DNA of 64,000 bases from Escherichia phage vB_Eco-B1.1. Below are positions 3,455-3,817 of the stretch, piece after piece (positions within the stretch are counted from its first letter, which is position 1; the number at the start of each line of letters is the position of its first letter). The stretch lies in the sequence record ON871820; one strand, written 5' to 3'. The position numbers were made by a program, and so were the translations under genes. The notes beneath the pieces were generated by a model. It did not search any database. It saw only the letters and a program-made list of their open reading frames with translations, and was not told the DNA's origin.

Positions 3455-3817
3455 ATGAAAGCATATCAAATTCTTGAAGGCACACATAAAGGTACTATTT
3501 ATTTTGAAGATGGTATTCAAGCACGAATTATCGTTTCTAAAACCTTTAAAGAGGACTCTTTTGTAGACCCAGAAATTTTCTATGGTTTGCATGCCCGTGA
3601 AATTGAAATTGAGCAACAGCCTACAGTTAAAATTGAAGGTGGTCAACACCTGAACGTTAACGTTCTGCGTCGTGAAACTCTGGAAGATGCAGTTAAGCAT
3701 CCGGAAAAATATCCGCAGCTGACCATCCGTGTATCCGGTTATGCAGTTCGCTTTAACTCTCTGACTCCGGAACAGCAGCGCGACGTTATCGCTCGTACCT
3801 TTACCGAGAGTTTGTAA
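3455..3817 (+). CDS. autonomous glycyl-radical cofactor (GrcA/YfiD-like)
   Basis: C-terminal ~60 aa [59 protein letters not shown] match the E. coli GrcA glycyl-radical domain; this part has host-like codons. Confidence 0.8.

Follow-up and report, generated by a model that had tools for sequence, protein, structure and literature searches.

A host-identical segment of grcA within gene vs.6 of T4-type phages suggests repeated replacement by host DNA

Gene vs.6 of the T-even phages is best explained as a gene for a GrcA-type glycyl-radical cofactor whose 3′ half has been overwritten by the grcA gene of the host, and more than once. To this explanation, which covers both the function of the gene and its evolution, we assign a probability of roughly 0.8. 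In the phage genome considered here, we observed a mosaic gene, a match to host DNA that is unique within the stretch analysed, an N-terminal half homologous to that of GrcA and, across related phages, segments that track the alleles of different hosts. The further proposition, that the radical-domain half is repeatedly re-copied from the grcA of the most recent enterobacterial host, that it is the only T-even segment regularly recombining with host DNA, and that it keeps a readable record of host history, is one that we favor with some reserve.

Gene vs.6 and its genomic setting

The DNA analysed is a 64,000-nt stretch of Escherichia phage vB_Eco-B1.1 (record ON871820; hereafter the window). 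It is the DNA of a Tequatrovirus, i.e., a T4-type phage, and the open reading frame at 3455..3817 on the + strand is its vs.6 gene. The list of open reading frames gives it an ATG start, 120 codons for amino acids and a stop of its own, as in a real gene, and at the DNA level it is 100% identical to its counterpart in Escherichia phage EC128, 98.3% to that in T4 and 93.1% to that in RB69, where it is annotated as vs.6; roughly 1,500 phage records gave a match to it. When the reading frames of the window were compared with those of EC128 and RB69, the gene order proved to be that of T4 and RB69 (nudix hydrolase, lysozyme e, ..., vs.8-vs.7-vs.6-vs.5-vs.4, ..., regB, vs.1, vs, ..., tk), such that the gene has both the early-region position and the high identity expected of a T4 vs.6 ortholog. 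An initial annotation of this DNA, made from the sequence alone, had named the T4 protein Y06I as a homolog, and both the identity and the gene order agree with it. Y06I is in fact the product of the same gene at the same position, with the same 120 residues in length and the same RVSGY radical domain. Only one residue differs from the Y06I of T4 strain 147, and it lies outside the radical domain (Gln54 here, Pro54 in T4); two more differences from that strain, both synonymous, fall in the last 13 nt of the window's vs.6. In RefSeq phage records, the gene goes by the name GrcA.

The gene is packed tightly between its neighbors. A Shine-Dalgarno-like GAGG, read from the sequence at 3446..3449 (+), stands 5 nt before the ATG of vs.6 and overlaps the TGA stop (3445-3447) of the vs.7-like frame upstream, and the TAA stop of vs.6 overlaps the ATG (3817-3819) of vs.5 (TAATG). 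Because a scan of positions 2300-4700 for promoters and terminators returned sites no commoner than in shuffled sequence, vs.6 is probably co-transcribed with the neighboring genes.

In an adjacent part of the window, the reading frames at 1516-1776 and 1838-2416 adjoin one another and have near-identical first peptides (MKMYQEFIVEA and MKTYQEFIAEA), starts reminiscent of the leader that directs internal proteins of T4 to the capsid. In RB69, genes annotated as ‘internal head protein’ occupy the region corresponding to 1516-2416 of the window.

The product of vs.6 is a GrcA-type protein

Three traits of the GrcA/YfiD class (TIGR04365, IPR011140) occur in vs.6: It encodes a small stand-alone protein of about 14 kDa, with a Gly_radical domain containing RVSGY and an N-terminal region of about 60 residues that is homologous to that of GrcA. 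The Pfam family Gly_radical (PF01228) matches residues 60-101 (E 2.5e-18), the structure of GrcA (PDB 6owr) matches residues 22-120 (E 9e-42), and residues 58-120 align with residues 697-759 of PflB (PDB 1cm5, E 5e-26). Against the NCBIfam profile TIGR04365, vs.6 scores 154.9 bits over profile positions 25-126 of 126, which is under the curated equivalog cut-off of 170, a shortfall that we attribute to its diverged N-terminus.

The initial annotation had held that the C-terminal 60 or so residues match the radical domain of GrcA/YfiD. The match turns out to be complete, in that all 61 residues from 60 to 120 are identical to residues 67-127 of E. coli GrcA. The conserved radical glycine, for which that annotation had advised a check by alignment, is present as Gly95 (codon GGT, 3737..3739, +) within the motif RVSGYAV; its position was computed and follows from the alignments to GrcA (6owr) and PFL (1cm5), where it corresponds to Gly102 of YfiD and to Gly734 of PflB.

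A host-identical segment in the 3′ half

Between positions 3633 and 3804 of the window (+ strand), vs.6 is identical to nucleotides 200-371 of E. coli grcA at 172 of 172 sites, and when the comparison is extended through the stop codon, the identity is still 181/185. This segment, which we call the conversion patch, spans GrcA codons 67-123, i.e., almost exactly the structured glycyl-radical domain. Every one of the complete E. coli genomes searched (5,426/5,426) matches this stretch, at 95-99%. In a megablast of all 64 kb against E. coli genomes, the sole match was 3633-3821, to grcA, with pflB as a weaker second match at 80%; an identity of no more than about 80% to pflB DNA marks grcA, and not pflB, as the donor of the patch.

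Base composition changes abruptly along the gene. In the 5′ half (codons 1-59), GC is 0.34 and GC3 is 0.20, and in codons 60-120 they are 0.49 and 0.44, respectively, with E. coli-type choices for leucine (CTG in 5/6), arginine (CGT or CGC in 6/6) and proline (CCG in 3/3). The initial annotation had described just such a GC-richer 3′ stretch with host-type codons behind a sharp boundary, and we place the break at 3632/3633. It had also offered nucleotide alignment to grcA and pflB as a way of refuting a host origin, and the exact match to the former upheld that origin instead.

Conservation of the protein does not explain this identity, because the same amino acids are encoded elsewhere by quite different DNA: Klebsiella phage Kp_GWPR59 does so at 133/158 (84%) nucleotide identity to E. 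coli grcA, and grcA of Citrobacter amalonaticus at 146/158. At a per-site identity of 84%, a run of 172 consecutive matches would have a probability of about 1e-13, if sites are assumed to be independent.

The edges of the patch are as informative as its interior. Phage records that contain grcA nt 200-384 at ≥95% identity number 638, and among the phage matches listed, all start at grcA nt 199-200 and none has the host 5′ half. The left edge of the patch is where nucleotide similarity between phage and host begins, and its right edge lies 13 nt before the stop. As would be expected of psbA-type exchange, a segment of high identity (here 172/172) sits between two of much lower identity, with about 50% on the 5′ side and 9/13 on the 3′ side. 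The tail outside the exact patch (3805..3817, +) departs from E. coli grcA at four synonymous sites (ACC, GAG, AGT, TTG), and because this end of the gene is again of the phage type, the host segment lies inside a pre-existing gene. At the four or five synonymous sites within these last 13 nt, related E. coli phages show no fewer than six different combinations, which suggests that conversion tracts differ in their right-hand ends; the tail variants could also reflect constraint from the ribosome-binding site of vs.5.

Different phages carry the alleles of different hosts

Related phages have the alleles of different hosts, as psbA-type exchange would also produce: The window and T4 carry a K-12-type allele, IME537 an O157-type allele, and KP185 and RCIP0102 alleles of the K. 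pneumoniae complex, as judged against a small host sample of about 85 alleles. That different phages have different host alleles indicates that exchange happened more than once, and replacement, on the evidence of these comparisons, looks both recurrent and host-specific.

The Tequatrovirus IME537 has six core differences from the common E. coli allele, and three of the six coincide, in position and in base, with the three SNPs that the allele of E. coli O157:H7 TR01 has within the patch region of grcA. The patches of the Klebsiella phages of the genus Jiaodavirus are 94-98% identical to alleles of the K. pneumoniae complex and carry the Klebsiella-type residues ETLLDAVEH in place of the E. 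coli-type ETLEDAVKH. Among these, KP185 matches allele L099 at 153/158 and has the Ser codon (LTSEQQ) of L098/L099, RCIP0102 matches allele L100 at 155/158, and Roth17 shares with RCIP0102 the Pro codon found in L100/L101 (L098-L101 being assigned to species from the names of their protein clusters). To E. coli grcA, all three match at only 136-141/158. For Roth17, the best of the sampled Klebsiella alleles reached 148/158, i.e., there is no close donor among those sampled. In unpatched lineages (Slopekvirus, Pseudotevenvirus, Krischvirus, T5-like and Aeromonas phages), the best match of vs.6 among the roughly 85 host alleles is at 70-87% identity. Moreover, closely related Jiaodaviruses differ at 17/172 sites in the patch and at 5/178 in the 5′ half (p 0.0075), whereas purifying selection on a conserved domain would leave the patch the less variable of the two.

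These observations bear directly on the alternative of a single old transfer, followed either by very strict conservation of the nucleotide sequence or by spread among phages alone, with no continuing exchange with hosts. Its attractions are that T-even phages recombine readily with one another, that those infecting E. coli all share the left junction of the patch and that most share one allele. However, identity at synonymous sites is not explained by selection on the protein when other phages encode the same amino acids at only 84% nucleotide identity; nor would a single transfer account for the three O157-allele SNPs in IME537, for the Klebsiella alleles of the Jiaodaviruses, which extend to the Pro/Ser polymorphism of the host, or for the excess variation of the patch among close relatives. 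We therefore regard a single old transfer as unlikely and prefer recurrent replacement from the host. Recombination between co-infecting T-even phages could pass a single patch around, which leaves the count of host-to-phage events uncertain; the alleles require at least about three to four.

Several Tequatroviruses isolated from other genera also have a patch of the E. coli type, including Hafnia phage IsaacDaniel and Yersinia phages phiD1 and ZN18 (96.8-98.4% identity). Salmonella phage SG1 probably has one too, in that its identity to Salmonella grcA is 82.7%, the same as that of E. coli Tequatroviruses. A Salmonella-like patch was not found, with no phage record exceeding 84% identity to Salmonella enterica grcA. 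Since isolates from Yersinia and Hafnia, and probably Salmonella, have the E. coli patch and none has a Salmonella-like one, the patch reflects the history of a lineage and not simply the host of isolation. The patches of the Hafnia and Yersinia phages suggest either that these lineages recently grew, in nature, in E. coli or a close relative or that the grcA genes of their own hosts are too diverged to recombine.

Some candidates were set aside. As a donor, the grcA of a Klebsiella sp. metagenome-assembled genome (L026) reached 91% at best, and near-identity appeared only with alleles of the K. pneumoniae complex. An IMG/VR sequence taken for a Yersinia-matched phage copy (L133, 144/158) is a full-length bacterial grcA that begins MITGIQITK, and a series of sequences taken for phage vs.6 (L171-L182) encode PflB-type C-termini (MNREMLLDAME...) and appear to be the 3′ ends of bacterial pflB genes. 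Two bacterial records were unusual in themselves. In one (L024; NZ_CP170105.1, Klebsiella sp. WOUb02 ‘plasmid unnamed4’, 275 kb), the normally chromosomal grcA is on a record labeled as a plasmid, which is likely a chromid or a misassignment; in the other (L033), a contig of an assembly labeled Vagococcus (sp. WN89Y), a Firmicute, has an enterobacterial-type grcA with 91% protein identity to that of E. coli, a likely case of contamination.

Proposed function and mechanism

The gene vs.6/Y06I and its biochemical role are already known. According to PMC8683613, which cites Wagner et al. (2001; pmid 11444864), T4 Y06I and E. coli YfiD both obtain a glycyl radical from the PFL activase, form a complex with oxygen-cleaved PFL and restore its activity; the work that showed this for Y06I, with PflA as the activase, was done in vitro, and the two proteins are presented as the only validated spare parts for a glycyl radical enzyme. 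Residues 61-127 of YfiD adopt the fold of PFL 693-759, and residues 1-60 are disordered; the latter promote binding to cleaved PFL and installation of the radical, and catalysis proceeds without need of them. The region of PflB that aligns with vs.6 (697-759) is the part lost after oxygen cleavage at Gly734.

By analogy, the structured domain of vs.6 (residues ~60-120) would bind PFL that has been cleaved by oxygen at Gly734, host PflA would place a glycyl radical on Gly95, and the domain would then stand in for the lost C-terminal radical domain, bringing back PFL activity. The diverged N-terminal half of vs.6 would be the counterpart of the disordered GrcA region that aids binding to cleaved PFL. 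During micro-oxic or anaerobic infection, the fermentative energy metabolism of the host would presumably be sustained. Because the patch covers the structured domain, the phage protein offers PflA and PflB a domain identical to that of the host, and so exact a likeness to the host speaks for the host's own PflB and PflA as the partners of this domain.

As for how the patch arises, the ancestral 3′ half of vs.6, at about 80-85% similarity to the host, may seed recombination with the host gene during infection, with the T4 proteins UvsX/UvsY/gp46-47 presumably acting on fragments of host DNA; this half would be overwritten with E. coli grcA sequence in phages of E. coli and with Klebsiella grcA in the Klebsiella Jiaodaviruses. 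Once identical to the host, a patch would ease further exchange, so that conversion could be self-reinforcing. T4 breaks down host DNA early in infection, and this could either limit or supply the substrate for recombination.

The initial annotation had pointed out that nrdD and nrdG are encoded in the same genome, and both are indeed in the window (the 3′ part of nrdD at 23354-24547, and nrdG at 24544-25014). Their presence invites the alternative that vs.6 is mainly a spare radical domain for the phage NrdD, activated by NrdG, rather than for host PFL. Such a role would suit the suggestion by Nolan et al. (PMC1524935) that vs.6 acts in nucleotide metabolism, and the vs.6 homolog of Aeromonas phage Ah1 is placed immediately between nrdD-nrdG and nrdC-nrdH. 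But vs.6 has no detectable similarity to the NrdD of the window (BLASTP E 1.4), its radical motif is RVSGY where NrdD has RTCGY, and the RxCGY form is absent from it; instead, its domain is identical to that of GrcA and aligns closely with the C-terminus of PflB. The sole activity demonstrated, according to PMC8683613, is that PFL is rescued through PFL-AE, and an exact copy of the host grcA domain fits a partner from the host. We judge that a primary role in repairing NrdD is improbable, and take host PFL to be the likely client of vs.6.

The order of genes in Ah1 (MG250483.1, L089:1-1962) is unlike that in T4, where about 20 kb separate vs.6 from nrdD/nrdG, and it is the only hint we saw linking vs.6 to anaerobic ribonucleotide reduction. 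The nrdD reading frame of the window is itself incomplete: There is only a C-terminal frame of 397 aa (23354-24547), which ends in the radical motif RRTCGYLG and is followed by nrdG, and the rest of the protein must be encoded farther upstream, either in a different frame or across an interruption. A split of this kind would fit the group I intron that divides nrdD in T4.

The N-terminal half is an old GrcA homolog

The initial annotation regarded the reading frame as chimeric, with a phage-specific N-terminal half joined to a host domain. This part of its account did not hold, in that the N-terminal half is a diverged version of the corresponding region of GrcA. The phage-type 5′ half (codons 1-59; 3455..3632, +), delimited by nucleotide identity, composition and protein homology, has about 50% nucleotide identity to the 5′ half of E. 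coli grcA in aligned columns, and its product matches the N-terminus of GrcA at 36% over 39 aa in BLASTP (E 1e-5). When alignments of phage and bacterial GrcA N-termini were compared with the radical domain excluded, hhalign returned a probability of 95.6% (E 1.1e-8) over 42 columns; the first 17-21 residues of vs.6 do not align with GrcA. Phages of Mosigvirus, Jiaodavirus, Slopekvirus, Pseudotevenvirus and Krischvirus, as well as T5-like and Aeromonas phages, have a full-length gene of the same architecture, and Nolan et al. reported vs.6 in 6/6 of the T4-like genomes that they compared (PMC1524935). Judging from these alignments, vs.6 corresponds to the whole of grcA and has long been a phage gene. 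Because its N-terminal half is homologous to that of GrcA and the gene is kept in T4-like lineages that have no patch, with 3′ halves only 76-87% identical to any sampled host gene, it was not captured recently; rather, part of it was overwritten by gene conversion.

We accordingly give very little credence to a recent fusion, in which a captured host glycyl-radical domain was joined to an unrelated, phage-specific N-terminal domain to make a new chimeric frame. The abrupt change in composition and identity at 3632/3633 is what a fusion would leave behind, and the N-terminal half has no Pfam match of its own. Against it are the homology of that half to the N-terminal region of GrcA, the occurrence of the same architecture in T4-like, T5-like and Aeromonas phages without a host-identical patch, the presence of vs.6 in all six genomes of Nolan et al., and the return to phage-type sequence at 3805-3817, which leaves the host segment internal to the gene.

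T5-like phages (Tequintavirus and relatives; L088:1320-1688 in T5_ev212, and L141-L167 from IMG/VR) have their own grcA-like gene of 122 aa, beside tRNA genes. Its N-terminus starts like that of the T4 type (MKAYQNLKSG...), and its DNA is about 75% identical to the 3′ half of the window's gene, with no host-identical patch. The gene family is thus common to unrelated families of virulent coliphages. In one Jiaodavirus-type vs.6 (L126:301-700; IMGVR_UViG_2974754850_000001, 167 kb), a single T has been lost from a run of T (TTTTTATGG -> TTTTATGG), and the frameshifted protein ends after 49 residues, ahead of the radical domain; either the sequence contains an error or the gene is a natural pseudogene.

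Source and age of the host-derived segment

Identity by itself does not tell which genome was the donor, and it is the evenness of the bacterial gene that does. In E. coli grcA, the 5′ and 3′ halves have diverged to the same extent from those of Salmonella (0.843/0.844), Klebsiella (0.869/0.876) and Enterobacter (0.854/0.860), and they have nearly the same GC3 (0.42 vs. 0.43). Given that the host gene is uniform and the phage gene is a mosaic, the transfer was from host to phage. The reverse, in which the 3′ half of E. coli grcA came from T-even phages, has in its favor only that identity carries no direction, and it is scarcely credible when that half matches its own 5′ half in GC3 and in divergence from related genera, is present in all 5,426 E. 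coli genomes and belongs to a gene that fits the enterobacterial series (Escherichia sp. 156/158, Citrobacter 146/158), when the compositional discontinuity is in the phage partner, and when T-even phages are strictly lytic, such that infected cells leave no descendants.

With respect to age, the differences between Tequatrovirus and Mosigvirus number 20/178 in the 5′ half of vs.6 (10-11% divergence) but 2/172 in the patch (Fisher p 8e-5), which makes the patch younger than these two lineages that carry it. The suggestion of recent capture in the initial annotation is therefore right for the host-derived patch, which is recent relative to the divergence of the phages, and wrong for the gene as a whole, which is old.

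Relation to known systems

The closest bacterial comparison is with E. coli GrcA (PDB 6owr), which has the same two-part design, i.e., an N-terminal region (disordered in GrcA) followed by a structured radical domain. The N-terminal half of vs.6 is about 33-36% identical to that of GrcA, is 7 residues shorter, is AT-rich and has phage codon usage. The host grcA promoter is regulated, whereas vs.6 sits in a cluster of phage early-region genes and is not under that promoter. The C-terminal domain of PflB (PDB 1cm5, 2pfl) aligns with residues 58-120 of vs.6, but vs.6 encodes a stand-alone protein of 14 kDa and PflB is an enzyme of 85 kDa.

The evolutionary comparison is with psbA of the T4-like cyanophages, for which Sullivan et al. 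(2006; PMC1484495) describe segments exchanged between host and phage copies. The likeness is at the level of the phenomenon only, i.e., a host-like metabolic gene in T4-like phages that exchanges segments with the host. Here, the host is enteric, the product is a repair cofactor rather than a core protein of a photosystem, the patch, at 172 nt, is very short and matches exactly, and the alleles come from two host genera.

In the literature that was searched, there was no report of a host-identical patch in vs.6 or of allele-specific patches from E. coli and Klebsiella, although Wagner et al. (2001) and the 2003 review of the T4 genome were outside this search and may contain an earlier notice. 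The gene being known, its evolutionary behavior is a modestly novel addition, and one that is easily testable.

The finding has a paradoxical aspect, in that a virulent phage that destroys the chromosome of its host carries 172 nt identical to it and its relatives carry the alleles of their own hosts. If our reading is true, vs.6 would be a clean natural system in which to measure homologous recombination between T4 and host DNA, and an enteric counterpart to the exchange of psbA in cyanophages. The patch would also be a possible sequence marker of the recent host of a T4-like phage, and as such could help in choosing therapeutic phages.
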